Assembly: GCA_963774265.1 (NCBI GenBank)
Contig: CAVZDU010000001.1
Span: forward strand, 1,152,001 to 1,216,000
DNA length: 64,000 nucleotides
Reading direction: 5' to 3'
Source of the DNA: an uncultured Chloroflexia bacterium
Lineage (GTDB): Bacteria > Chloroflexota > Anaerolineae > CG2-30-64-16
This document shows positions 2,029-16,366 of this stretch, one piece after another (within the stretch, counting starts at the first letter, position 1; the number at the start of each line of letters is the position of its first letter). A model generated the notes under the pieces. The model made no database searches and had not been told where the DNA came from. It saw only the letters and a list, made by a program, of their open reading frames with translations. Both the position numbers and the translations under genes were made by a program.

Positions 2029-3147
2029 GTAGGTAACAGAAAATTCGGGGCACTTCTTCGTTGCCTGATATACTGGGGTTACGGAGGGTGCCATGATCTA
2101 TGTACGAACACCAACGGATGCTGAACTGCAAGAGCTCAAGCGAATGACCCGCCATGAGATCGGGCGGGTTAGCCAACGAGCGCAGATGGTTCTGCTCTCA
2201 GCGCAGCAGCGCACGGTGCCTGAGATCGCCGTCATCTTTGGCGTCAAGTACAAGACCGTGCGCAAATGGCTCCGCCGCTTCAATGCGGCCGGGCCGGCCG
2301 GACTGTATGATGAGCCGCGGAGTGGGCGGCCGCGGACGCTGACCGACCGTGTCCGTGACACTTTGGTCGACATGAGCGAGCAGGATCCCGAGCAGTCGGA
2401 CTATCCCGCGACCTTGTGGACGGTTGCGATGCTGGCCTTAGCCTTGGCCGAGAAGATCGGCGTGTATCTGAGCCATAGCACCCTGCGTCAGACGCTGCAT
2501 GCGGCCGGCCTGGCCTGGAGCCGCCCACGACTCGCCATGCCCCGCAAGACTGATCCGCAGAAGGCGGCCAAGCAGTGGGCAATAGTGCAGGCCGTGATTG
2601 GGGCTGGCCCAGCTGCAGTCGTGCTGTACGCCGACGAATCGCGCATCCAGATGCTACCGTTGATTCGAGCAATGTGGCATCGGCTGGGCCAGCAGATCCG
2701 TGTCCCGACGCCCGGCAGCAATCAGACGCGCAGCCTATTTGGAGCGCTCAACATTCGCACGGGCCAGTGGACGTGGTTGATCCGCGAGCATATGCACAAA
2801 GAAGACTTCATCACTTTCCTGGAACACCTGTTGACGGTGTATGCCAGCGGTCCGATCATTCTGATCGTCGATAACTACTCCAGCCATACGGCTAAGGCCA
2901 TCGATGCCTGGCTGACTGAGCACCCGCGACTCCAGTTGCACTACCTGCCGAAGTACTGCTCGCATCTGAATCCGGTTGAGAACATCTGGCTGCGTCTCAA
3001 AGGCCAGACCGCCGCTGACCGCTTGTACGGTTCGCTGCATGGTCTGCTGGACGCCGTCACACGCTTCTTCGACCATATGACGCCAGCGATGGCGTTGACC
3101 TGGGCCAGTCTCGACTGAAAAGTGACCCGTACTTTTTGTGACATACT
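2028..3147 (+). mobile_element. IS630-family insertion sequence, copy 1 (1120 bp)
   Basis: 28-bp imperfect terminal IRs AGTAGGTAACAGAAAATTCGGGGCACTT / rc AGTATGTCACAAAAAGTACGGGTCACTT; TA duplicated at 2026-2027 and 3148-3149; near-identical copy at 61754-62873. Confidence 0.95.
2093..3118 (+). CDS. IS630-family transposase
   Basis: N-terminal HTH, PRSGRP, YADES, IVDNYSSH, LPKYCSHLNPVENIW (DDE_3-type motifs). Confidence 0.95.
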   Translation: MIYVRTPTDAELQELKRMTRHEIGRVSQRAQMVLLSAQQRTVPEIAVIFGVKYKTVRKWLRRFNAAGPAGLYDEPRSGRPRTLTDRVRDTLVDMSEQDPEQSDYPATLWTVAMLALALAEKIGVYLSHSTLRQTLHAAGLAWSRPRLAMPRKTDPQKAAKQWAIVQAVIGAGPAAVVLYADESRIQMLPLIRAMWHRLGQQIRVPTPGSNQTRSLFGALNIRTGQWTWLIREHMHKEDFITFLEHLLTVYASGPIILIVDNYSSHTAKAIDAWLTEHPRLQLHYLPKYCSHLNPVENIWLRLKGQTAADRLYGSLHGLLDAVTRFFDHMTPAMALTWASLD

Positions 3148-4240: not shown

Positions 4241-5533
4241 ATGAATCACTTCCGAACACACCTGCTTTTTCTCTTGCTTGTGACCGCGCTCCTGTGGGGC
4301 GGAGGCGCAGCCGCTCAAAGCCCGGGCGCTGTCAAATTGGCCGAATTCAAGGGGCCTGTGACCCCTGTGCTGGCGTCCTATATCGAGCGCTCGATCGCTG
4401 ACGCAGAGGCACAAGCTGCGGCCTTGCTGGTTATCGAGTTGGACACGCCGGGCGGCTCGGTCGATATCACCAAGAATATCACTCAGGTCATGACGGCTGC
4501 CCGCGTCCCAGTGGTGGTTTGGGTGGCGCCCAGCGGTGCGCATGCGGGCTCGGCCGGGACCTTCATTACGCTTGCCGCACACGTGGCCGCGATGGCGCCG
4601 GGCAGCAGCATCGGCGCGGCCAGCCCGGTAAGCAGCGAAGGGCAGGACTTGAACGATACGATGAAGGCCAAGGAGACGAATATCCTGGTGGCCGATATCA
4701 AGAACCTGGCCGCGCGGCGCGGAGAGAAGGCGGTGGCGTGGGCAGAGAAGGCTGTGTCTGAGGCGGCGGCCGCAACCGCTCAAGAGGCGCTCGATCTGGG
4801 TGTTGTGGATATCGTCGCGAATGACCTGGACGATCTGCTGCGCCAGTTGGATGGCCGCACCGTCACCATCGCTGGCGAGGAAATCACCTTGCAGGTCAGC
4901 GATGCGCCTGTGGAAACAATCCCGCTCAACCCCCTGGAGGGGCTGCTCAACCAGCTCACCAACCCTGCGTTGGCCGCCATCCTGCTCACCATCGGCCTTA
5001 ATGCCATTCTGTTCGAGCTTTCCAGCCCCGGCGGCTATGCCGCGGGTATTATTGGCGTAATCTGCATCCTGATGGCGTTCTATGCGCTCGGCACGGTCAA
5101 TGCCAACTGGACCGGGCTGGCGTTTGTGCTGCTCGCCGTGGTGCTTTTCATTCTGGACATCAAGGCGCCCACCCACGGTGCGTTGACACTTGGTGGCCTC
5201 GTTAGTTTTGTCTTCGGGCTTTATCTACTTTACAACACCTCCGACGTCCCGGTTCCCTGGCCTTCGATCATCGTTTCGGCTTTGGCGACGGGAGGGTTCT
5301 TTGCGTTTGCTGTGGCGAAGGCCCTTGCGATCCAGCGCCGGCCCGCAGTGGGAGGGATGACAGGCATGGTGGGGCAGACAGGGATAGTGCGCCAACCGCT
5401 TGAGCCACACGGCATGGTGCTGCTGAACGGTGAGCTTTGGAAGGCGGAGTCGGAATCAGGTCCGCTTCCTGCGGGGGACCCTGTAGTGGTGACGCGGCAG
5501 GAGGGCTTTCTGCTCTGGGTTCGGAGAGTCTGA
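4241..5533 (+). CDS. nfeD: NfeD family membrane-bound ClpP-class serine protease
   Basis: Signal peptide, LDTPGG, AGSAGTFI, AMAPGSSIGAA, TM bundle, C-terminal GELWKA OB domain. Confidence 0.9.
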   Translation: MNHFRTHLLFLLLVTALLWGGGAAAQSPGAVKLAEFKGPVTPVLASYIERSIADAEAQAAALLVIELDTPGGSVDITKNITQVMTAARVPVVVWVAPSGAHAGSAGTFITLAAHVAAMAPGSSIGAASPVSSEGQDLNDTMKAKETNILVADIKNLAARRGEKAVAWAEKAVSEAAAATAQEALDLGVVDIVANDLDDLLRQLDGRTVTIAGEEITLQVSDAPVETIPLNPLEGLLNQLTNPALAAILLTIGLNAILFELSSPGGYAAGIIGVICILMAFYALGTVNANWTGLAFVLLAVVLFILDIKAPTHGALTLGGLVSFVFGLYLLYNTSDVPVPWPSIIVSALATGGFFAFAVAKALAIQRRPAVGGMTGMVGQTGIVRQPLEPHGMVLLNGELWKAESESGPLPAGDPVVVTRQEGFLLWVRRV

Positions 5534-5548
5534 CCCTTGCACTGCATA

Positions 5549-5588
5549 ACAAACCGGGTTGCCTCCAGAGGGAGGAAACCCGGTTTGT
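5549..5588. terminator. Hairpin between convergent genes
   Basis: ACAAACCGGGTT..AACCCGGTTTGT. Confidence 0.55.
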
Positions 5589-5625
5589 CGTTAAGGAGGC
5601 ATTTCGGGCTGGGCGCCTTATGCGA

Positions 5626-6409
5626 TCACCCGGCACCCTGGCGGCGACCCACAAGGGTGAGCAGCACGAACACCAACAGTGCGCTGACAATTAACACGAC
5701 GGCCACCGGCTGCGCGGCCGCCAATCCAAAACCTTCGAAACGTTCGTATACCAGCACCGGCACCACCTTGGGATGGTAGGCCAGGATGACCACCGCGCCG
5801 AACTCGCTGACTCCGCGCGCCCACATCATCAGTGCGCCGGTCAGCACGCCTCGCCATGCTTGCGGCAGCGTCACGTGCCAGAACGCCTGCCACGGCGAGG
5901 CGCCATCGACCAGTGCTGCCAGCTCATACTCCTCATCGACTCTGCGCAAACGCCTCTCGGCCCGCGTTCACCAGGAAGGGCAGGCCGACGAAGGCCATCG
6001 CAACCGCGACGCCCGCCGCGGTGTCGGTGAAAGTGATGCCGATCGGCGCGAAGGCCCGGCCGAACATCCCCCGCCGGCCGAAGACCATCAGCAGGGCGAT
6101 TCCTGCTGCGGTATGCGGGATCACCAGCGGAAGGTTGACAAGCGCCTGCACCAGACGCTTGCCGGGGAAGGACCGCCGTGCGGTCAGATAAGCCAGTGGC
6201 ACCCCGGTGACGAGACCGAAGACCACCGCGGCCAGTGCGGCCAGGAAGGTCAGCCGGATCGAGCCCAGCACCTCCGGGTCATGGAGCGCATCCCAGAATG
6301 AGATCGGCGTCGTGGAGAAGAGGGTGTTGGCGAGCGGCGCCACCAGGAAGAGCAGCAGCGCCCCGCTCGCCAGGGCAAAGAGGACGTCGAGGGCAGAACG
6401 GCGGCTCAC
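5626..6409 (-). CDS. wtpB: Tungstate/molybdate ABC permease (WtpB/ModB-like; apparent indel near 5950)
   Basis: NLPLVIPHTAAGIALL, EAA-loop region, WARGVSEFGAV; overlaps the wtpA stop. Confidence 0.85.
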
Positions 6410-7572
6410 GGTGTCTCCGCAGGGCGACAGAGCGCCTGAAGCTGCACAGGCACATGCTCGTAACCGTCGGCCAGTGGAGTCTCGAACATCGGGTGGTAGT
6501 TCGCCTCCATCACGGCGCGACCCTGGGGGCCAAGGAGAAACGCGATGAACTGGCTGGCTTCCCCCGGATGCGGCGCGCTCTCTGGGATCGTTATCCCGTA
6601 GCCGATGCGCTCGCCGTGGAACTTCGGTTTCACGGTGGCGAAACGCCGGACGTCCAGGTTGACTTGGACACGACCGTAGTCAGCCTGGTGCTCGGCAGAG
6701 CCGAGATTCTCCTCATCGGGCAGGTGCAGCATCTCCAGTCCATGCTGGCGGATCACCGACTCGTACTCGAACGCATAGTCAAGGTCACCGGACTCCAGCA
6801 GAGCCACGAGCTGGATGCTGGCACCGCGCAGCATGACATGAGCACCGGATCGCGTCTCCAGCACTTCGGGCACGGTCACTGTCGCCAGGTCATCATCCAG
6901 AAAAAGCGTCACCGCCTGGGTGAACTGGCCATTGAACAGGTTGGCGAAGTAGGTGTAACGTCGTGCGCGTTCCTGCGCCAGCACGACCGCCATGAACGCC
7001 CGGTATCCCGCTGCGTCGAAGCGTGGGTCCGCGATCCCCACCTTCACGTCGGGGCGAGCCAGCACCTCCGGCCAGTTGTCGGCCGTCAGCTCGGCGGCAT
7101 ACTTGCTGCCCCGGTTGTAGGCCAGCGTCAGCCGGTTGGTGGCGAAGCGAATGTACCAGTCGGCGTAGGGATGACCCGTCCCGGGGTCAATGGCCCCGGT
7201 CATCAGCATCGGGATCAGCGAGGCGTCGGCCGTCGCAACCACGTCGATGGGTTCGTGCAGCTCGGTGGCGTGGCGGATGACCTGGATGCTGCCGTGATAT
7301 TCGGCGCGCACGTCTATCTGCGGATACTGTGCTTCGAACGCGGCCTCCAGCGCTTTGAACGGCACAATAAGACTGCCCGCCCCGAACACGACGAGGGGGA
7401 CGCGGCTCGCGGGTGGCGTTGAGGCCGCCGCAACGGTCGGGACCGATGGCAGTCCGGGGGATGGGGTCGGCGTGGCGGCCGGCGGCGCGGGGAGTGCTGC
7501 GGGTGCCACGCAGCCGATCAGCAGCACGGCTATTACCGTAAGGATGAGCCGGGTAAGCCAGCGTTTTGACAT
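6406..7572 (-). CDS. wtpA: Tungstate/molybdate-binding lipoprotein, WtpA-like
   Basis: Lipobox LIGC; GAGSLIVPF, GSIQVIR, DPRFDAAGYR, GDLDYAFEYES, IGYGITIP. Confidence 0.85.
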   Translation of the reverse strand: MSKRWLTRLILTVIAVLLIGCVAPAALPAPPAATPTPSPGLPSVPTVAAASTPPASRVPLVVFGAGSLIVPFKALEAAFEAQYPQIDVRAEYHGSIQVIRHATELHEPIDVVATADASLIPMLMTGAIDPGTGHPYADWYIRFATNRLTLAYNRGSKYAAELTADNWPEVLARPDVKVGIADPRFDAAGYRAFMAVVLAQERARRYTYFANLFNGQFTQAVTLFLDDDLATVTVPEVLETRSGAHVMLRGASIQLVALLESGDLDYAFEYESVIRQHGLEMLHLPDEENLGSAEHQADYGRVQVNLDVRRFATVKPKFHGERIGYGITIPESAPHPGEASQFIAFLLGPQGRAVMEANYHPMFETPLADGYEHVPVQLQALCRPAETP

Positions 7573-7599
7573 CGTAAGCCTTGATCTGAGGATAGGATT

Positions 7600-7626
7600 G
7601 TAGGACAGGTTGCCAACCTGTCCTAC
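7600..7626. repeat. GTAG-type REP-like palindrome
   Basis: GTAGGACAGGTTGCCAACCTGTCCTAC. Confidence 0.6.
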
Positions 7627-7633
7627 GTTGTGA

Positions 7634-9145
7634 TTACTTCAGTTCGATCTGGCTCACTTCCTTCACCCACAAGCCGCTGGACAAGCCGGGCATGGCGAGC
7701 TTGAGCTTGCCCGGCGTGTTCGTGAAGGCCACCAGGCAGTCGGCGCAGCCGAGCACGTCGGCCAGCGCGGCCTCGCTTGAATAGCCGTCCGCTGCGGTGA
7801 AGACAATCTTCGTGGCGCCGGCGGCTGGCACGGCAAGCGCCAGCAGGTCGCCCAGCCGCACACCTTCGTATTCCGCCACCCCCGACTTCGGGTGCTCCGC
7901 AGTAATCTTGACCACCTGCATACCGCGCAGGTCGGCTTCTTTCAGACCCAGCGGAGTTTCCACCGCACCGATGACCACCAGGTCGCCCGCCACGGCCGCG
8001 GGGGCCGCCTGTGTGGAGGCAACGGTCGGCTTCGGGGCCTCCGTAGGCTCGGCAGCGGCGGCATCCGTCCCATTGAGCTTGAGGTCGATCTCGCCGATCG
8101 TGCCCACCATTTCGTTGTTCTTCAGCGAGTCGCCGACCAGCCGCAGCGGGGCGTATTGCTCGGGCAGCGGGTTGTCGTTGACCAGTGAGGCGACCAGGAC
8201 GCCGTTCTGTCGGGCCAGCGGCGCGCTGTCGAGGGTGGCCGTGTAGCCATCTTGCGCTACGACCTCAACTTTGTAGCCCGCCAGGGCCAGCGCCTCGTTG
8301 AACGCCGGACCTTGATGCTTGACCTCGTCATCGGCGTAGCCCATCAGTAGCCACAGCGGGACACCGGTCCACACCTGGGCCTTACTATCGGTCCAGGTCG
8401 CCTTGTGGCACCCTACGCACGACTCGAAGGTGCCGCGATCGATCTTCGCCTGGATGCCACCGTTCAAATCCAGCGTCCAGTCGGCCCCCAAGGGCTTGAC
8501 CTCCAGTTTGGTGATCCACTTCACCGACCAGTGCCCGTCGGTCACCTGATCACGCTTCGGGCTGATGATCACGATGCGCAGGGCGCCGTCGCTATCCTCT
8601 GGCAGGGGTTTGCCCTCGCGCTCGAAGGCGAGCATGGCGGTCAGGCTGCCGGGCGACTTCAACTCATCGCCTGTGGCGGGATCGTAGGCGATGAACGTCC
8701 CTTTGGTCAGTTGATCGTAAGAGAAGGTGATGGCGTAGCCGTCCTTGGCGACCGCGTTGACCCCCATCTCGGGATCAAGCGGACCAAGCAATTCGGCGAG
8801 GGTCAGCAGGCTGACGCCCCGATGCGCGACCGGAGGCGTGATCTTGCCGGTGCTGCTCTTGAACCCCGCCGCGCCTTCGATCACATCGAGCTGCTTGAGG
8901 TCATCGAGGGTTAGTAACTTGGAGCCGGACGGCCCGACGACTTCCAGGATCGACGGAGGCACAAGGGTTGCAGCAGGCGGGATAGGTGTGGCCGTTGGGG
9001 GAACGGGCGACGCAGATGGGGGCACAACTGTAGCTGCCGGCGGGGGAGCCGGCGCTGCTGCAGGCACGGGTGCGCAACCACCCAGCACAAGCTGAGCGGC
9101 AAGCAGCGACAGACAAAGGATGGACAGAGCGGCAGAAGATTTCAT
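7634..9145 (-). CDS. Lipoprotein with three tandem sulfite-oxidase-like (molybdopterin-binding fold) domains and Pro/Ala linkers
   Basis: Lipobox LGGC; three repeats of the GVxL..AxDGY..(LR/LK)L..WVK pattern (RGVSLL/AKDGY/SVKWI; WTGVPL/AQDGY/PLRLV; EGVRL/AADGY/WVKEV). Confidence 0.7.
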   Translation of the reverse strand: MKSSAALSILCLSLLAAQLVLGGCAPVPAAAPAPPPAATVVPPSASPVPPTATPIPPAATLVPPSILEVVGPSGSKLLTLDDLKQLDVIEGAAGFKSSTGKITPPVAHRGVSLLTLAELLGPLDPEMGVNAVAKDGYAITFSYDQLTKGTFIAYDPATGDELKSPGSLTAMLAFEREGKPLPEDSDGALRIVIISPKRDQVTDGHWSVKWITKLEVKPLGADWTLDLNGGIQAKIDRGTFESCVGCHKATWTDSKAQVWTGVPLWLLMGYADDEVKHQGPAFNEALALAGYKVEVVAQDGYTATLDSAPLARQNGVLVASLVNDNPLPEQYAPLRLVGDSLKNNEMVGTIGEIDLKLNGTDAAAAEPTEAPKPTVASTQAAPAAVAGDLVVIGAVETPLGLKEADLRGMQVVKITAEHPKSGVAEYEGVRLGDLLALAVPAAGATKIVFTAADGYSSEAALADVLGCADCLVAFTNTPGKLKLAMPGLSSGLWVKEVSQIELK

Positions 9146-9178
9146 TAAAGCTCCTTCGTTGGAGTGATGGCAGAAATT

Positions 9179-9210
9179 AGATACCGCTGACGAACTCGTC
9201 AGCGGTATCT
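9179..9210. terminator. Perfect 15-bp palindromic hairpin downstream of tupA
   Basis: AGATACCGCTGACGA-AC-TCGTCAGCGGTATCT. Confidence 0.55.
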
Positions 9211-9230
9211 GAACTGAGGCGTACCCGTCG

Positions 9231-10643
9231 CTACTTAAGATTGATCTCGACGACGCCCTTTACCTGCAGGCCCTTGGCGAAGTCGGGCAGCACCGTGCTG
9301 AAGCCGCCGTTGCTGCGGAACGACACGATACAGTTGCCACACGCGAGCACGTCGGCCAAGGGCGCCTCAGCCGTATAGCCGTCATCCGCCACAAAAACGA
9401 CCGTTTTCGCGTCTGCAGCCGGCGCGGCCTGCGCCAGCAGCTCGGTCAGCTTGATGCCAGTGTACTTCTCTTTCGCACCCTTGCTGTTGGTCGACTCGAC
9501 CTCAGTCACTGGCAGCGCCTTGATCTGTTCCTCTGACCAGGCCTGTTCTGAGCCCACCTTCCCCGTGATCTTCAACGCCGCACCGCCGGTGGCCACAGCC
9601 GCCTTGTCGCCAGAAGCAGCCTCGGCCGGCTTCGCGCTGGCGTAGAACAGCGGCTGGCCGAATTTGTCCACCCCGTAGCCGCCGATCATCTTCTGCACAT
9701 CGGGGGAGAGGATCCACTCTACGAACTGCTGCGCCAGCTCAGCCTTGACGTTAGGATGCTTTTCCGGGTTGACAGCCAACACGCCGTACGGGTTGAGCAG
9801 CGCCTTGTCCTTGTTCTCGGCCAGATTGCCGCCGCCCACCATCACGTCCAAGCCAGGCAGCTTATCGCTCATGGCGAGGTATGTGCCGCGGTCGGCCAGC
9901 GTGTAGCCTTGCTTTTCTTCTGCAAACAGCAAGGTGTCACCCATGCCCTGGCCGATCGAGTTGTACCATGTCATCTCTTTGGTCGGTGTCACAGCGATGC
10001 TCGACCAAATGCTCAACTCTTTGGTGTTCGTTCCCGACTTATCACCGCGGCTGACAAAGGGCTGTCCCGCATCCATGATCGCCTTGAAGGCCTCCTTGCC
10101 GGTGGCCATCCCCATGACTTTGGCGGGATCTGTCTTGGGGCCGACGACGATGTAATCGTTGTACATCACGTCGAAGCGTTCTTTGGCGTGCCCGTCCGCG
10201 ACGAACTGATCTTCGCCCTTGCGGCTGTGCACCAACACCACGTCGGCGTCGCCCTTGGTTCCGATTTCCAAGGCCTGCCCCGTGCCAACGGCGATTACGT
10301 CCACCGCTGCGTTAAACTTTTTTTCAAAGTCGGGCAGGATGTAATCCAGCAGGCCCGAGTCGGCCGTGCTGGTGGTGGTGGCCAGGATCAGCTTCGCCGG
10401 TTCGGCGGCAGTCGTCGGCGCCGGAACAGCGGTCGGTTCGGGCGCCTTGGTGGGTTCGGGGGGCGCCTGCGTTGGTTCAGGAGCCTTTGTCGGTTCGGCC
10501 GGCGCCTGTGTTGGTTCAGCAGTCGGTTGAGCTGGGACCTGCGTTGCCTGGGCCGCCGGCGCCGCGGGGGCAGGTGCGCATGCCCCAAGGATCGTCGCCA
10601 GCACCAGCGCGGAGGTCACGAGCATAAGAAAGCGTCTGGACAT
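9231..10643 (-). CDS. tupA: TupA-like tungstate-binding lipoprotein with an extra C-terminal molybdopterin-binding-like domain
   Basis: Lipobox LGAC; ATTTSTADSGLL, VGTGQAL, SRGDKSGT, GQGMG, DRGTY, LLNPY; C-terminal YTGIKL..ADDGY..CGNC..QVKGV. Confidence 0.85.
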   Translation of the reverse strand: MSRRFLMLVTSALVLATILGACAPAPAAPAAQATQVPAQPTAEPTQAPAEPTKAPEPTQAPPEPTKAPEPTAVPAPTTAAEPAKLILATTTSTADSGLLDYILPDFEKKFNAAVDVIAVGTGQALEIGTKGDADVVLVHSRKGEDQFVADGHAKERFDVMYNDYIVVGPKTDPAKVMGMATGKEAFKAIMDAGQPFVSRGDKSGTNTKELSIWSSIAVTPTKEMTWYNSIGQGMGDTLLFAEEKQGYTLADRGTYLAMSDKLPGLDVMVGGGNLAENKDKALLNPYGVLAVNPEKHPNVKAELAQQFVEWILSPDVQKMIGGYGVDKFGQPLFYASAKPAEAASGDKAAVATGGAALKITGKVGSEQAWSEEQIKALPVTEVESTNSKGAKEKYTGIKLTELLAQAAPAADAKTVVFVADDGYTAEAPLADVLACGNCIVSFRSNGGFSTVLPDFAKGLQVKGVVEINLK

Positions 10644-10676
10644 ATTACTCCTCCTGTGTATACTTGTATCGTGACA

Positions 10677-10704
10677 ATTATAGGCAAAGGCTATGAGCTG
10701 TCAA
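10677..10704 (-). promoter_or_regulatory. Consensus sigma70 promoter of the tupA operon
   Basis: Minus strand TTGACA-N16-TATAAT; AGGAGGAG RBS before the tupA ATG. Confidence 0.75.
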
Positions 10705-10732
10705 CATAGCGCAGTGCCGAAGTGAGGGACCG

Positions 10733-11467
10733 TTGAACATCTTGATCGGCATCGACGATACCGACAACCTGGAGAGCCGGGGCACCGGTCACCGGGCGCG
10801 CATGCTTGGACTGGCATTGGAGGAGGCTGGATTAGGACGGCTTCAGTCTGTCACCCGCCATCAACTCCTGGTGCATCCTGACATCCGCTATACGTCGCAC
10901 AACAGCTCCGCATGCCTGGTTTCAGATGGGCAGGCATCCATCGATGACATAGAGGTTTTCTGTGCGTCGTTCCTGAGGGCCGAAAGCGCGGATGGTGCGG
11001 ATGCCGGGTTGTGCGTGCTTTCGCAAGAGCGCGTCGGTCCGGGCTTAATCTCCTTCGGACTACGCGCCAAGCGCGAGGTGCTGAGCCAGGCTGAGGCATT
11101 TGGATGGGCTGCCCGAAGTGGTGCACGGTTGAGCGGGCTCACCGGTGATGGAGGCGGCGTGATCGGCGCCCTGGCGGCCATCGGGCTGCGTGCGGCGGGT
11201 GAAGACGGACGCTTCCTTTGGCTTCCGGGCTTACGTGAGCTCTCCGGGACAGCCACCGTGGCAGATTTGTGGGAGCAGGCGTGCATCGAGATCGTCCAGT
11301 CCGTGGAAGGTGTGCCGCTCGCGCCTCAGACGCTCATTGAACTGGGAAATTGGGTGCGACCCGTGTTGCATGGCGGCAAGGCCGTGTTACTCGTCGAGTC
11401 TAGCGCGGGGGACGCGAACCGCTGGCGTGTGGCAGCGCGTGACATCATCAAGCAGCGCTCCGAATAA
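10733..11467 (+). CDS. Stand-alone protein resembling the N-terminal (TCKD/FLD) region of TiaS / methanogenesis marker 11
   Basis: IGIDDTD, RHQLLVHPDIRYTSHNSS, ADAGLC, GGGVIGALAAIG; no OB-fold or zinc-ribbon tRNA-binding part. Confidence 0.65.
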   Translation: MNILIGIDDTDNLESRGTGHRARMLGLALEEAGLGRLQSVTRHQLLVHPDIRYTSHNSSACLVSDGQASIDDIEVFCASFLRAESADGADAGLCVLSQERVGPGLISFGLRAKREVLSQAEAFGWAARSGARLSGLTGDGGGVIGALAAIGLRAAGEDGRFLWLPGLRELSGTATVADLWEQACIEIVQSVEGVPLAPQTLIELGNWVRPVLHGGKAVLLVESSAGDANRWRVAARDIIKQRSE

Positions 11468-11476
11468 GGCCCGATT

Positions 11477-12899
11477 GTGAACACCGTCGGGGGTCTATTT
11501 GCGGTTCGCGCCGAGGCCGTAGCCTATAGCTACGGTCCGGCCATGCAGCACTTGCATCCCATAGATCTGACTGTCCGTCCCGGCGAGTTTTGGCTGGTCG
11601 CTGGACCCTCCGGTTGCGGCAAGAGCACCCTGGCTCGCTGCCTGACCGGCCTGATTCCCCATCTGTATCGTGGTTGCATGGCCGGTCAGGTGACGGTCGG
11701 AGACATCTGCACAGACAGCGCGCCTTTATGGCAACTGGCCGAGGAGGCGGGCCTGGTGTTTCAGAACCCCGCTGCACAAATGCTGTGTGCGACCGTCGAA
11801 GATGAGCTTCTCTTCGGCCTTGAAACCCTGGGTCTGGATCGCCCCGAGATGGCTCGCCGCGTGGATGTCGCGCTCCGGCAGTTCGATTTGACAAGGTTGC
11901 GCGACCGCCCGCCTCAGATACTCTCCGGCGGTGAGCAGCAGAAACTGGCGCTGGCTGCGGTCATGGCTCGGCGACCGCCGCTGCTCGTCCTGGATGAGCC
12001 GTTATCCATGCTCGACAGCACGACCGCGCTTGAACTCGTGGCGCATTTGCAGACGTTGACGCAGGATGGGATTGCCGTGGTGGTGTGCGAGCACCGGGCG
12101 GAATATCTCAACTCAATCCCGGGGCTACGAGTACTGTCCCTGGCAGGGGATGGACACGCCTCAGATGCTGAGTCATTGCCTCCCGTCCCGTCTCGAATGA
12201 GTCCATTTGCGCTTCAGGTGCAGGATGTCAGCGTGCGTCTGGGCGGCCGGCCCGTGTTGAACAGGATCAGTTTTGCGGCGGCGAGCGGCGAAGTGATGGC
12301 GATCGTGGGTCGCAACGGGTCGGGCAAGACGACCTTGCTGCGCGCACTGGCAGGCTTGCAGACGCATGATGGCGGCGTGACTGTGATCGGGGAACGCCCG
12401 GACTTCGGGTTGGTCTATCAAAACGCTCAGCTTCAGCTTTTCAACGCATCGGTGCGCGATGAGGATCCTCTACCGGCTACCGAGGCCCGACATCGCATGG
12501 TACGACTGGCTCATGCCGGCCCTCGGGTTGAAGGCTTATGAGGAGACACCTCCCTTGCTGCTCAGTGAGGGCGAGAAGAAACGTGTGGCGCTGGCGACGG
12601 TGCTGATGCGCCGGCCGCGGCACGGGGTGCTGCTGGATGAGCCGTCTTTGGGCCAGGATGCGGCACACAAAGCCCTTCTGATGCGCCTGGCTCGCAGCCT
12701 GGCCGGTGCAGGTCAGCTTGTGGTGATGACCACACATGATCTGGCGCTGGCCGTACAAGCTGATCGGCTGATAGTGCTCCACGAAGGTCGGATCGTTGCC
12801 GATGGACCGGCGGCCTCGGTGCTGTCTGACAAACGGGTGTGGCAGGTCACCGGCCTGACTGTCCCTGCATGGGTGCGTGAGCCGGAGGGGCAGGCATGA
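11477..12899 (+). CDS. ECF transporter double ATPase (A-A' fusion; apparent indel near 12460)
   Basis: Two Walker A motifs (GPSGCGKST, GRNGSGKTT), VFQNP, LSGGEQQK/LSEGEKKR, LDEP twice. Confidence 0.9.
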
Positions 12900-13630
12900 G
12901 AGCTGGGATGACGCGGCGAGGCGTTTCTGATCGGCTGGCTGCATTGGCAGTGGACTCGCCGCTGCGGCGTGCTGATCCGCGCGTCAAGCTCGCGCTCAGC
13001 CTCGCACTGTCGCTGGCGATCATGATGCCAATGGAGAAGTTGCTTGTGCTCCTCGTCACGTATGGTGTCTTTTTGGCCTGGGCGAGGCTGCTGCAGGTGG
13101 CGGGACGGCTGCTTTGGCGGTTGAAATGGATTCTGTTGATCCTTTTCATCGTCGATTGGGTGCTTGTCTCGTTCGATCTGGCCGTGCTGGTCAGCCTGCG
13201 CATATTGTTGCTCAGCGCATCGTTCGCCCTTGTGTTTGCGACGACAACGCCTTCGGAGTTTCGTCTCGCTTTGGAGTGGTTGCGCTTACCTTATCGTTAC
13301 GCGTTCAGCGTGGGCGTGGCAGTGCAAAGTCTCGCTCTGATTGAGCAAGAGTGGCGGACCATCATCGAGGCCCAGCGGGCTCGGGGTGCATGGTCGCCGC
13401 CAAGTGGTTGGCGCAGGCTGGTTGAGAGCGTCCGCGATGCAGTCGCTTTGGCCGTGCCCGCGGTGGTCATGACAGTACACCGTGCATGGAGCATGACCGA
13501 GGCTGCCTACGCGCGCGGTTTCGACGCGCCGGGCCGCAAATCCTTTCGCCAGTTGCGCATGGGCTGGCTGGATTGGGCCTTACTTCTGGCTGCGGGTTTG
13601 CTCGCCGCAGTTCTGATCCTTTGGCGGTGA
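12896..13630 (+). CDS. ecfT: ECF transporter transmembrane T component
   Basis: ADPRVKL, EAQRARG and AYARGF motifs. Confidence 0.9.
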   Translation: MRAGMTRRGVSDRLAALAVDSPLRRADPRVKLALSLALSLAIMMPMEKLLVLLVTYGVFLAWARLLQVAGRLLWRLKWILLILFIVDWVLVSFDLAVLVSLRILLLSASFALVFATTTPSEFRLALEWLRLPYRYAFSVGVAVQSLALIEQEWRTIIEAQRARGAWSPPSGWRRLVESVRDAVALAVPAVVMTVHRAWSMTEAAYARGFDAPGRKSFRQLRMGWLDWALLLAAGLLAAVLILWR

Positions 13631-13645
13631 TTTGAGGAGTCGCCC

Positions 13646-14152
13646 ATGTCGCAAAGAACTCGCATCATCATTGCAGTTGGCGTTATCGCGCTGATCGGTG
13701 TAGTCATCCTGGGGCTGGAAGCCCTACGCGCGCGTCCTTCGTCGGGCGGCGCGGCCGGGTCAGAGCCCACTGTTGTTCCGGGCGCGTTATCAATTTACCT
13801 GGATGGAAAGCTAGTCGCCAGCTTCACACCGGCTGATCTGGAGAAACTAGCGAAGGTAAGCTTCACCGATGCGGCGGAGGAGAAGCTGCAGGATGGATGG
13901 CAGCTCGCAGACATCCTGCGGCTGCACGTTGCGGATTCGCTGCCGAACACCGCACAGATCACCGTGAGTTCATCCAGCCGGGAGAAATCAGTCCAGTTGT
14001 CCTGGGCCGAAGTGGCCGAACCGGCGAACAAGGTGATATTCGATCTGTCGAACCGTGGGACGCTCAAGCTTGTTTCCGTGCTGCCCAAGCTGGACGACAG
14101 GGACGAGTGGGTGCAGGATGCGGACCGCATCGATATCGTGATGAAGCCCTGA
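13646..14152 (+). CDS. Membrane-anchored exported protein with one molybdopterin-binding-like domain
   Basis: N-terminal TM helix; FTPADLEKL, GWQLADIL, TLKLV, WVQDADRI resemble the repeats in 7634-9145. Confidence 0.55.
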   Translation: MSQRTRIIIAVGVIALIGVVILGLEALRARPSSGGAAGSEPTVVPGALSIYLDGKLVASFTPADLEKLAKVSFTDAAEEKLQDGWQLADILRLHVADSLPNTAQITVSSSSREKSVQLSWAEVAEPANKVIFDLSNRGTLKLVSVLPKLDDRDEWVQDADRIDIVMKP

Positions 14153-14697
14153 TGAAAGAACGCTACTTCACTACTTTTCAACTCATCTTGCTGGCGCTAT
14201 TCGCGGCGCTGGTTGTCGTGGCCAAGATCGCGCTGAAGACCCCAATCCAGTTGCCCGGCCACAGTGGTCTGTTCTGGATGGCGTTGATTATCATCGCAGG
14301 TGGGCTGGTGCCGCGGCTTGGTGCAACCAGCCTAGTTGGCCTGACCTCCGGCATCCTGGCCGCATTTCTTGGCATGGGTGATTTCGGCGCGCTCGAAACA
14401 CTGCTCTCCTACACAGCAGTCGGCGTTGGGACGGACCTCGCACTCCTACTCCTGCGCAATCTGGACAATCTTGCCGTGTGCGCGTTGGTCGGCGTGATTG
14501 GCCACCTGGGGAAGTTCATCGTGAAGTGGGCGTTGGGCGCACTGACGGGCGCACCCCTAGGGTTCGTTGCACTTGGACTGGCGTGGTCTTTCCTTAGTTA
14601 CATACTTTTTGGTGCGTTAGGCGGGCTGCTTGCGGGCCTCACGTTGAAGGCGTTACGTCGGGCGGGGTTCTTTACCTATCTGGCGGAGCGGCGCTAA
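14152..14697 (+). CDS. ECF transporter substrate-binding S component, substrate unknown
   Basis: 181 aa, about 6 TM helices, ALFAAL (AxxxA) in helix 1, PGHSG loop; start overlaps the upstream stop (TGATG). Confidence 0.75.
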   Translation: MKERYFTTFQLILLALFAALVVVAKIALKTPIQLPGHSGLFWMALIIIAGGLVPRLGATSLVGLTSGILAAFLGMGDFGALETLLSYTAVGVGTDLALLLLRNLDNLAVCALVGVIGHLGKFIVKWALGALTGAPLGFVALGLAWSFLSYILFGALGGLLAGLTLKALRRAGFFTYLAERR

Positions 14698-14728
14698 AAG
14701 AGGCCGGACGATCGGTCGCCCGGCCTCT
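14697..14728. terminator. Hairpin between convergent genes
   Basis: AAAAGAGGCCGG..CCGGCCTCT. Confidence 0.55.
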
Positions 14729-14758
14729 GTCCTGGTGTGTCGCGGGAGAACCCGGCCA

Positions 14759-16321
14759 TCAGGCCGGGTAGTCGAATGCCTGCTTCTCCTTGACCACTTC
14801 TTCCTTTTTGGGCTCCGGTTTTGCGCGGCCGTAGATGATTGTCCACTCGGCCAGCCGGTCCGCAAGTTGGATCGTGAGCATCTCGGGACGGTAGCGCCAA
14901 TGCCAGTTGCCGCTGGCGCGCGCCGGCATGTTCATGCGAGCCTCCGCGCCAAGGCTGAAGACATCTTGCAAGGTCGCCAAGGCCTGGTTTGCCACGCTGG
15001 ACCACGCACCCCAGATGAAGTCCCACGCGATTTCGTGCCCGTCCGTGCGGAAGTACCGGCGGATATTGTGCCGCTCGATCTCAGTTCGCTCGGCTTCGTG
15101 GAAGTAGCCCACTGTGGTGTTGTTGTCGTGCGTGCCCGGATAGACGACGTAGTTCTTATCGTATGTATGGGGCATGTACTGCGGGTTAAACTCCATGCCG
15201 AACGCAAACTGGAGGATCTTCATTCCTGGCAGCCCGAATTCCGTGCGCAACGCATCCACATCGGGTGTGATAACGCCCAAGTCTTCCGCGATGAACGGCA
15301 GATCGCCGAGCGCCTGCTTTACCGCGACGAACAGATCGTGACCCGGCGCCTTAACCCACTTGCCCTTGACTGCAGTCTCCTCGCTTCCGGGGATTTCCCA
15401 TGCAGCGGCAAATCCTCGGAAGTGATCGATGCGCACGATGTCAACGAACTTGAACGTTTGCTGGATACGGTTGATCCACCACCTGAAGCCGTCTTGCTGC
15501 ATCCGAGGCCAGTTGTAGTGCGGGTTGCCCCAGCGCTGCCCGGTCGCCGAAAAGATATCCGGCGGCACCCCGGCGATCACGGTGGGATTGCCTTCTTCAT
15601 CCAGTTTGAACTGCTCGGGGTTGGCCCAAACATCCGCGGAATCCTCCGCGACAAAAATGGGCACGTCGCCGATGATCTGGATACCGTTCTCGCCGCAATG
15701 AACCTTGAGCGCCTCCCACTGCTCCCAGAAGAGCCCACTGCAGGAACTCGTGATACTCAACCTCGTCCGCCAACTCCTGGCCGCATCCGCGCCAGCGCGG
15801 ACGGTTCGCGCAGGCGGATATCGCGCGGCCAGTCGTGCCAGCTCCCACCGCCATAGTGGCCCTTTACCGCCATGAAGAGGGTGAAGTCGGGCAGCCAGCT
15901 TGCGCTCTGCTCGCGGAACCAGTCGAAGCCTGCGTGTTGCGCATCGGTTGCGTTCTCCTTGAAATGTTCGTACGCTTTGCGCAGGAGTGACTTGCTTGAA
16001 GGTAATGACCGAGCCGAAATCGACGCGGTGCGCGCGGGAAAATAGGGCATATCGTACAACGCATGATGCGGTAGCAGGCCTGAGTAGGCCAGGCCTTCCG
16101 GACTGATCAGGAGTGGATTGCCGGCAAATGCCGAAAAACACTGATACGGCGAGTCACCATAGCCGGTGGGGCCGAGCGGCAACACCTGCCAGAGTTGCTG
16201 CTTGGCCGCAGCCAGCCAATCGATGAAGTCGTAGGCGCCCTTGCCCAGGTCGCCGATGCCGAAGCGCGACGGGAAACGAGGTCGGATGGCAGAGAATGCC
16301 GCTGGATCGTTCGAATGGCAT
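14759..16321 (-). CDS. malQ: 4-alpha-glucanotransferase (amylomaltase, GH77; several apparent indels)
   Basis: RSSGILCHPTS, WQVLPLGP, SPYQCFSAFAGN, GDVPIFV, GVPPD, RIDHFRG, AEDLG, GTHDN. Confidence 0.93.
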
Positions 16322-16366
16322 ATCACCTCCTAAGATGCTAACGGATTGACAGATCGACACCCGGTA

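Follow-up and report, generated by a model that had tools for sequence, protein, structure and literature searches.

An apparently undescribed ECF importer with a PruR-fold surface protein and a TiaS-type kinase domain in the tungsten/molybdenum-cofactor regulon of Anaerolineae-type Chloroflexota

Introduction

The metal importers CbiMNQO and NikMNQO(K/L), the tungstate importers TupABC and WtpABC and the YkoEDC(F) importer are the closest described counterparts of a gene island that we have analysed in a 64,000-nucleotide stretch of the genome of an uncultured Chloroflexia bacterium (GenBank assembly GCA_963774265.1, contig CAVZDU010000001.1, positions 1,152,001 to 1,216,000; the whole stretch is hereafter called the window, and positions refer to it). 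The island spans positions 5626 to 14697 and consists of two divergent arms. Its right arm, the main subject of this work, encodes an energy-coupling factor (ECF) importer made up of a fused ATPase (AA'), a T component and an S component, together with an enzyme that carries the TCKD kinase domain of TiaS and a membrane-anchored protein (the anchor) with the fold of PruR. Its left arm encodes tungstate-type ATP-binding cassette (ABC) proteins and further copies of the same minimal sulfite-oxidase fold (the small domains). An initial annotation of this DNA had proposed that such surface domains capture metal-pterin and pass it to the S component, while the ABC arm takes up the free oxyanion.

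In layout, the island most resembles CbiMNQO and NikMNQO(K/L), in which a dedicated operon of A, T and S components likewise has a small anchored or extracytoplasmic component encoded beside S, and which also belong to the regulon of the cofactor in which their cargo is used. The S component of the island is not CbiM/NikM-like, however, its extra component has a sulfite-oxidase/PruR fold and not that of CbiN or NikN, its operon includes a TCKD enzyme, and its cargo would be an anion or a pterin rather than a cation. With TupABC and WtpABC the island shares bona fide TupA-like, WtpA and WtpB proteins in its left arm; it differs in that its TupA has a fused domain, its WtpA is preceded by a triple-domain lipoprotein, TupB and TupC are encoded about 600 kb away in this genome, and the island is without WtpC. 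YkoEDC(F) is, like the island, a dedicated ECF module whose operon encodes a further cytoplasmic protein (YkoF), and its PF09819 is the nearest Pfam family of the island S component (21.6 bits, below the gathering score), whereas the module type described here stands under a molybdenum cofactor (Moco) and not a thiamine pyrophosphate (TPP) riboswitch.

Two of the island's protein types have described relatives outside transport. PruR is a small secreted protein with a minimal sulfite-oxidase fold that, like the island domains, is without the molybdenum-ligand cysteine hairpin, and in structural comparison its entries (PDB 7KOS, 7KOU, 7KOM, 7KP2 and 7RKB) rank at the top for the anchor and among the leading matches for the small domain. 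It shares only 14-19% identity with the island domains, and its own partner is the GGDEF-EAL regulator DcpA of Proteobacteria, whereas the island domains are partnered with ECF S, TupA and WtpA in Chloroflexota. TiaS, which phosphorylates a ring carbonyl of cytidine using ATP, shares its TCKD kinase domain, including Thr18 and the DDxD motif, with the island enzyme. The island protein lacks, however, the FLD, OB and Zn-ribbon tRNA-binding domains of TiaS, is 244 aa long against 420, has a different C-terminal part and is always encoded beside an ECF module.

In the literature that we searched, which left subscription journals largely outside, an ECF system linked to tungsten, molybdenum, Moco or the Moco riboswitch is nowhere described; nor was the island system described there under methanogenesis marker 11 or under TupA/WtpA in Chloroflexi. 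According to a review from 2026, no system for the transport of pterins is known (PMC13259868). The system reported here, an ECF importer with a putative PruR-fold capture protein and a TiaS-type kinase in a tungsten/molybdenum-cofactor regulon, is apparently undescribed.

Results

The right arm is a conserved five-gene ECF operon

All genes of the right arm lie on the forward strand. The first encodes the TCKD protein (10733-11467), a 244-aa cytoplasmic protein of the PF22641 family with a TiaS-type kinase domain, in which hydropathy analysis revealed no transmembrane (TM) segment. It is followed by the fused ECF ATPase AA' (11477-12899; TIGR04520/TIGR04521), which is present in the window as two open reading frames (ORFs; 11477-12541 and 12459-12899), and by the T component (12896-13630; PF02361 CbiQ, 58.1 bits with a cut-off of 25, and TIGR02454). 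Next come the anchor (13646-14152), a 168-aa protein with one N-terminal TM segment, assigned by its AlphaFold2 (AF2) fold, and the S component (14152-14697), a 181-aa protein with a PGHSG motif. The initial annotation had correctly recognised both the S gene and this motif. The gene starts at 14152 and not at 13897, one base into the stop codon of the anchor gene. The S protein has about six hydrophobic segments and matches PF09819 below threshold (E 2.5e-4, under the 25.2-bit cut-off). A Pfam scan at E up to 1 returned this family and one domain of unknown function (DUF), with no CbiM/NikM-type match. Some of the 1135 S homologues are named 'ECF transporter S component' at source.

To place the module in its wider context, we scanned species genomes by pattern for S, which yielded 80 loci, and applied tblastn and ORF clustering to them. 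Most of these loci are labelled as Anaerolineae, Anaerolineales or Chloroflexota metagenome-assembled genomes (MAGs), and S is rare, occurring in 4 of the 401 genomes of a phylum sample, the source genome included. For 37 loci the sequence extends over at least 9 kb upstream and at least 5 kb downstream (the well-flanked set). Each of TCKD, EcfA, EcfT and the anchor was detected in 36 of these, and the anchor gene abuts or overlaps S in 36. The order TCKD, AA', T, anchor, S is found nearly everywhere that the flanks suffice, and S is the last gene of the module at every locus mapped. The right arm is a conserved five-gene operon. The exceptions within the well-flanked set are locus L027, in which the TCKD match is missing, and locus L065. 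At the latter (9409-13945), a Moco riboswitch, a TCKD gene cut at about 120 residues, S and MoaA-MoaC-MoaD-MoaE-MoeA form a tight operon, and AA', T and the anchor are missing. We considered whether L065 represents a solitary S component and rejected this, since the truncated TCKD gene directly before S makes the locus look like a deletion derivative. At locus L040 (7228-9453), AA' and T are fused as a single 741-aa ORF. With 141 clusters at 50% identity and E up to 1e-3 among 1.84 billion representatives, the anchor forms a small family. A look-up of protein clusters also gave leads to S-like clusters in Thermodesulfobacteriota and to TCKD-like clusters in Bacillota and Planctomycetota.

The module has the parts of a group I ECF importer, namely two ATPase domains, represented by two ABC_tran stretches in AA', and a T component of the CbiQ/EcfT family. 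It departs from the usual definition of ECF importers, which excludes an extracytoplasmic binding protein, in that the anchored domain protein is a core part. Because this extracytoplasmic protein belongs to the core (36 of 37 loci) and docks on S in a structural model, we regard the system as an ECF variant. In our reading, the right arm is a dedicated group-I-type ECF importer of the tungsten/molybdenum-cofactor regulon in Anaerolineae-type Chloroflexota.

The anchor is predicted to dock on the S component

In line with the initially proposed transfer of cargo from the surface domain to S, complex modelling places the anchor on S. The runs gave ipSAE scores of 0.65, 0.65 and 0.67, compared with 0.00 for the best of three controls, share at least 92% of their contacts and have a partner pLDDT of at least 76. 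The ipSAE mark that we applied was reached by 58 of 80 solved complexes and by 2 of 110 mismatched pairs, a calibration that is rough since our own alignments were used. In the model, the anchor helix packs on S residues 97-151, and the invariant RGT loop of the anchor (residues 136-140) contacts the invariant GAPxGF loop of S. The modelling thus supports binding of the anchor to S.

The module is embedded among tungsten- and molybdenum-cofactor genes

We then searched the well-flanked loci for conserved neighbours by unbiased ORF clustering, followed by Pfam and PDB look-ups. All 37 loci have at least one tungsten or molybdenum gene within 10 kb. The small sulfite-oxidase-fold domain is found in 26 of them, TupA in 18, a homologue of the beta subunit of the molybdenum storage protein in 13 (PDB 2ogx_B, E 1.7e-74) and any of MoaA, MoaC, MoaD, MoaE and MoeA in 11. 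A GntR+PBP_like regulator and a conserved 88-aa protein without a Pfam family each occur in 10 loci, and WtpA/WtpB and a DUF134 protein each in 9. The GntR+PBP_like architecture, which we take to be that of the TunR tungstate regulators, is also present in two genes of the source genome.

These data bear out the linkage of the two arms that was first noticed in the window: TupA, WtpA or the small domain accompanies S in 27 of the 37 loci, and in several loci both arms form a single co-directional operon. In locus L012, for example, the triple-domain lipoprotein, WtpA, WtpB, a domain-TupA fusion, TupB and TupC are followed in the same direction by TCKD, AA', T, the anchor, S and the Mo-storage homologue. 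Across loci the small domain takes three forms, being found as a stand-alone lipoprotein encoded directly upstream of TCKD, as a C-terminal fusion to TupA and as an N-terminal fusion to TupA. The Mo-storage homologue, a relative of the beta subunit of the Azotobacter molybdenum storage protein, is a single gene (e.g. L040:4992-5819), and tblastn did not find it in the genome of the window. A divergent gene pair encoding the DUF134 DNA-binding protein and the 88-aa protein stands directly upstream of TCKD in about 9-10 of the 37 loci (L016:5803-6413, L040:5838-6512) and may be a local regulator.

At the level of whole genomes, the predicted association with tungstoenzymes of the aldehyde ferredoxin oxidoreductase (AOR) family was recovered: AOR-family genes are present in 50 of 51 genomes that carry the system, versus 173 of the 401 genomes in the phylum sample, which includes the source genome and one unpublished genome and in which related genomes are not independent. 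By contrast, the loss of moaA and moaC that had been predicted along with it did not materialise. MoaC is kept in 44 of 50 carrier genomes, and the source genome encodes MoaA, MoaC-D-E and two MoeA proteins, so that salvage is not needed to explain the Moco of the carriers.

The operon is preceded by Moco riboswitches in several genomes

Rfam scans of 16 loci identified the Moco riboswitch RF01055 in five, and a covariance model built from those matches and applied to the window and 83 loci produced 14 matches spread over 12 loci, whereas the window gave none. The riboswitch stands directly ahead of the ECF module or of its operon in at least eight loci. In L051, L060 and L047 the gene that immediately follows it is TCKD, and in L048, L049 and L056 a small-domain gene comes first and TCKD second; it precedes EcfT in L073 and a TupB-TupC-TupA-TCKD-ECF-anchor-S operon in L061. 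Furthermore, it precedes the truncated TCKD gene and S in L065, a divergent small-domain gene in L057, the Mo-storage homologue in L025 and moaA in L040 and L071, while a second copy in L047 precedes TupBC-TupA. The Rfam model itself re-finds the sites of L047, L048 and L049 at matching contig coordinates. In line with the cofactor linkage first suggested for S, these Rfam and covariance scans of the loci connect it to the Moco riboswitch and not to B12 or thiamine riboswitches, and the operon is switched by the Moco riboswitch in several genomes. Rfam detected no such riboswitch in positions 5000-15500 of the window or in its own genome, and the island of the window is therefore not riboswitch-controlled. 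In one locus labelled Spirochaetes (L067), a NiCo riboswitch (RF02683, 46.7 bits) lies 3 kb downstream of S, at 11632-11713.

The surface domains have a minimal PruR-like fold

The initial annotation counted five copies of the sulfite-oxidase Moco-domain fold across both arms, and we find the same number, one in TupA, three in the triple-domain lipoprotein and one in the anchor; AF2 models of the small domain and the anchor, searched with Foldseek, agree with the fold. A profile of 56 small-domain sequences matched SorA (E 1.7e-5) and PruR (7kos, E 2e-4) in the PDB, and the AF2 model of the TupA C-terminal domain (pLDDT 87.2) matched SorA at 7.6e-7 and PruR at 1.3e-6, with TMq 0.78-0.80. For the anchor model (pLDDT 90.9), the best Foldseek matches were PruR structures (7kom/7rkb/7kou/7kos, E 4e-5 to 2.4e-4), followed by sulfite oxidases. 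The anchor has no Pfam match, and a comparison of its family with PDB chains by sequence only gave zero matches at E up to 10. Since the anchor and the small domain align only weakly in hhalign (E 0.004, probability 8%), the homology between them rests on their predicted folds.

The long hairpin of SorA (residues 92-125), in which the Mo-ligand Cys104 presumably sits, corresponds to about 12 residues in the small-domain profile, a Cys-free stretch that forms a short Ser/Thr/Asn/Lys-rich loop. The island domains thus do not have the Mo-ligand Cys hairpin of the sulfite-oxidase Moco enzymes. The only cysteines of the small domain form a near-invariant CxxC further on, and there are none in the anchor or in domain 1 of the lipoprotein. 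Capture of metal-pterin in the manner of a sulfite oxidase, as originally envisaged, is unlikely with such a minimal, PruR-like fold. PruR itself is described as having a truncated hairpin from which the Mo-ligand Cys is gone and a pocket that takes small pterins and probably not Moco (PMC11194511, PMC13259868), and N102, Y104 and W160 are named as its pterin-stacking residues (PMC11194511). In PruR, Asn-x-Tyr and a C-terminal Trp make up the pterin contacts, and Pro-Trp replaces the Cys. In the small domain, Tyr comes after a near-invariant D76-G77, roughly where the PruR Asn-x-Tyr would be expected, and the anchor has SSSSR-KS where the small domain has DDGY, as judged from the same weak hhalign alignment (E 0.004, probability 8%). 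Residues S109, S111, R112, K114, R137, T139 and K141 of the anchor are invariant. Among the conserved neighbour clusters there is no gene for a DcpA-type GGDEF-EAL or a TorS/BaeS-type regulator.

The TCKD protein corresponds to the kinase domain of TiaS

The TCKD protein of the window weakly matches the NCBIfam models for TiaS (E 8e-5) and methanogenesis marker 11 (E 2e-10), and PF22641 (TiaS_TCKD) was found in 51 of 53 members of its family. Against the PDB, a profile of these 53 members matched the Pyrococcus structural-genomics protein 3u02 (E 7.9e-10) and TiaS (3au7/4rvz/3amt, about 1e-7, over residues 1-150). The TCKD matches do not extend beyond residues 1-150/152 of the 402-440-aa TiaS chains or the 422-position model, and PF08489 was not among the seven families matched by the 53 members. 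Residues D8, D9, D11 and T18 are invariant in the family and align with the DDxD motif and Thr18 of TiaS. From its match to the TiaS kinase domain, the TCKD protein is predicted to be an ATP-using enzyme.

The left arm encodes tungstate-binding lipoproteins

An ORF listing and family scans placed all nine genes of the island where they had first been reported, with a divergent gap of exactly 89 bp (10644-10732) between the left arm on the reverse strand and the right arm on the forward strand. The first gene of the left arm (9231-10643; NF041772, PF12849, PF00174) encodes TupA, a tungstate-binding lipoprotein with a C-terminal minimal sulfite-oxidase-fold domain. It matches NF041772 at E 8e-67 over model positions 9-263 of 266, with 225 bits, under the strict 400-bit cut-off. 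Its initial identification as a tungstate-binding protein stands, with the correction that the C-terminal fusion (9234-9608; residues 373-446 match PF00174) holds one copy of the fold. The next gene (7634-9145) encodes the triple-domain lipoprotein, 503 aa with three minimal sulfite-oxidase folds (PF00174 three times, E 2e-18); 11 homologues were aligned, and WtpA always adjoins. WtpA (6406-7572; TIGR03730 and PF13531) is a tungstate-binding lipoprotein with the lipobox LIGC that passes the TIGR03730 equivalog test (272.8 bits, cut-off 242.75). The tungstate ABC permease WtpB (5626-6409) is represented by two ORFs, 5933-6409 and 5626-5949, which match NF040839 at model positions 4-149 and 150-250, respectively. 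In translation, TupA, the triple-domain protein and WtpA each have a lipoprotein-type signal peptide at the start and, after it, a linker rich in Pro, Ala and Thr.

The middle domain of the triple-domain lipoprotein has a Cys-x2-Cys-His motif in the window (8405-8419, residues 243-247) and in L054, and Cys-x4-Cys-His instead in the nine other homologues; as a motif, this possibly represents a c-type haem or metal site. The NCBIfam 'diheme GEGP' model also matches the lipoprotein weakly, but in its third domain (residues 410-464). Gene scans of the window did not find TupB/TupC or WtpC within the island. TupB and TupC are encoded at C1:562066-563363 of the same genome, about 600 kb from TupA, and are 87% and 73% identical, respectively, to the copies in L054, which adjoin TupA there.

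The divergent promoter region (10644-10732) is conserved in relatives, as seen in an alignment with L014, L005 and L008. It contains an inverted repeat, GCTATG-N9-CATAGC (10690-10710), that is kept in L005 and L008 and partly in L014. As a regulon marker this repeat was discarded, as the single further exact copy in the genome resembles a terminator hairpin and no regulon could be derived from it. At 2093-3118, 2.5 kb to the left of the island, there is a DDE_3/HTH transposase gene whose Pfam domains make it IS630-like.

Two island genes are split by frameshifts in this assembly

The wtpB and ECF AA' genes are present, as first annotated, but each is split here by a one-base frameshift. In wtpB the break lies near 5945, and relatives have one ORF of 261-268 aa. 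In ecfAA' it is caused by one extra base near 12464-12466 that is missing in four relatives, and AA' homologues are single fused ORFs, mostly of 455-497 aa. Outside the island, a 4-alpha-glucanotransferase gene (14759-16326) is likewise split into two overlapping ORFs, so that three split genes (wtpB, ecfAA' and this one) lie within 11 kb. The source genome comprises 5.5 Mb in 10 contigs and is 84% complete by marker genes. A look-up of sequencing runs gave one soil-metagenome run, at a word share of 0.07, and no RNA data. Three split genes close together, and a completeness of 84% despite only 10 contigs, make indel errors plausible. The split genes fit assembly errors of this kind; real pseudogenisation is possible, and the system may accordingly be inactive in the source genome.

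Discussion

The proposed mechanism is as follows. At the external surface of the membrane, the anchored protein, its helix resting against S, would capture the substrate in a truncated pocket of the sulfite-oxidase/PruR type and pass it to S. S would then topple against T, driven by AA', and the cytoplasmic TCKD enzyme would spend ATP to modify or trap the incoming substrate. If the ECF cargo is a pterin, the TupA and WtpA systems would bring in the oxyanion, and the domain copies fused to or adjacent to TupA and WtpA would serve these ABC systems.

As to the cargo, we lean towards a pterin rather than tungstate or molybdate itself. It would be a precursor or fragment of Moco or the tungsten cofactor, such as cyclic pyranopterin monophosphate (cPMP) or a molybdopterin-derived pterin, a tentative assignment for which the chances seem to us somewhat short of even. 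The presence of a conserved, apparently ATP-using enzyme in the core operon argues for an organic, pterin-like cargo, as does the YkoE type of the nearest Pfam family of S, and the capture domain has its nearest relatives of known structure among pterin-binding proteins. ECF S components carry mostly vitamins and their precursors, and riboswitches for finished cofactors typically control ECF importers of the same cofactor or of its precursors. In L012, moreover, two oxyanion ABC systems share the ECF operon, which suggests a complementary substrate for the ECF importer.

Several observations weigh against a pterin. Carriers keep de novo Moco synthesis, and free molybdopterin and Moco are very labile. 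To our knowledge, an extra membrane or extracytoplasmic component is needed only by the metal ECF importers CbiMNQO and NikMNQO. TupA, which binds an oxyanion, carries a fused copy of the domain, and the Ser/Arg/Lys pattern of the anchor looks, from its sequence, more like an anion site. TupA, WtpA and ModA are all unmatched in 8 of 50 carrier genomes, and two island genes are frameshifted in the window.

Several of these points would be accommodated if the ECF importer took up tungstate or molybdate, or a thio form of them, as a third, high-affinity route for these metals, with the anchor in the role of CbiN or NikK/L and the small domains as oxyanion-handling accessories. We consider this nearly as likely as import of a pterin, though it is not the reading we favour. 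An S component with a small anchored partner and dedicated T and A components parallels CbiMNQO and NikMNQO, and here too the partner docks on S in the model; CbiMNQO under B12 riboswitches offers a precedent for control of a metal ECF importer by the finished cofactor. Members of the domain family are found fused to either terminus of TupA and always stand ahead of WtpA. Ser/Arg/Lys/Thr motifs are invariant in the anchor, and the Mo-ligand Cys hairpin of SorA is replaced by the Ser/Thr/Asn/Lys-rich loop. The eight carriers without a match to TupA, WtpA or ModA nevertheless have AOR genes. Broader SBP_bac_11 matches were considered as the missing oxyanion binders and set aside, since the 5 of 13 that we examined, from five such genomes (G447, G435, G436, G451 and G406), are PstS-like, PhnS-like or a vWA fusion and not of the molybdate type. 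On the other hand, three of the eight genomes also lack MoaC, which suggests incomplete MAGs. In addition, we know of no anion ECF importer, nor did the literature search return one, S is not CbiM/NikM-like, it is hard to see what the conserved TCKD enzyme would do in metal import, and three importers for one oxyanion in a single operon, as in L012, would be redundant.

A pterin cargo, the reading that we prefer, can be extended to a fuller scenario in which the system would be the first pterin importer of the molybdopterin pathway and its PruR-like surface domains would collect cofactor that nearby cells set free in anoxic habitats rich in biomass. Stripped tungstate would go to the ABC systems from the domain copies on TupA and beside WtpA, the anchored copy would hand the pterin to S, and the TiaS-type kinase would re-activate or trap it. 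The Moco riboswitch would repress the system, shutting it down as a whole when cofactor is plentiful. Taken jointly, these steps make for a speculative combination that we consider less likely than not.

Far less probable is the model of the initial annotation in its exact form, in which intact metal-pterin is captured and imported whole, replacing de novo synthesis. The Moco-domain fold, the Moco-sensing riboswitch and the wealth of AOR enzymes with tungsten-pterin in the carriers are consistent with it. The Mo-ligand Cys hairpin is missing from the domains, however, whose only cysteines form the CxxC elsewhere, and the anchor is Cys-free; moaA and moaC are retained; and PruR, the closest solved relative, is said to be unable to take Moco (PMC11194511, PMC13259868). 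Least probable of all, and very improbable, is that the anchor acts as a sensor, as PruR does for DcpA, or that the ECF importer carries an unrelated vitamin and is merely co-located: signalling is the role described for PruR (PMC11194511) and S weakly matches the thiamine-precursor family PF09819, but no GGDEF/EAL or kinase partner is found among the conserved neighbour clusters, the anchor gene abuts or overlaps S in 36 of 37 loci, the riboswitch in front is of the Moco and not the TPP kind, and all 37 loci are linked to tungsten or molybdenum.

With either cargo, pterin or oxyanion, the system would fill a gap, as the first importer for salvage of a cofactor or pterin of the Moco pathway or as the first ECF importer of a metal oxyanion. 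Among ECF importers it would also be the first to have an extracytoplasmic capture domain bound to it. The PruR fold would gain a role in transport instead of signalling, and stand-alone proteins with the TiaS kinase domain would receive a functional setting. Tungsten-dependent AOR enzymes are numerous in the carriers, which are Anaerolineae-type bacteria and several of whose source records bear labels of bioreactor or sludge-type samples. The supply of tungsten could affect the performance of such systems.

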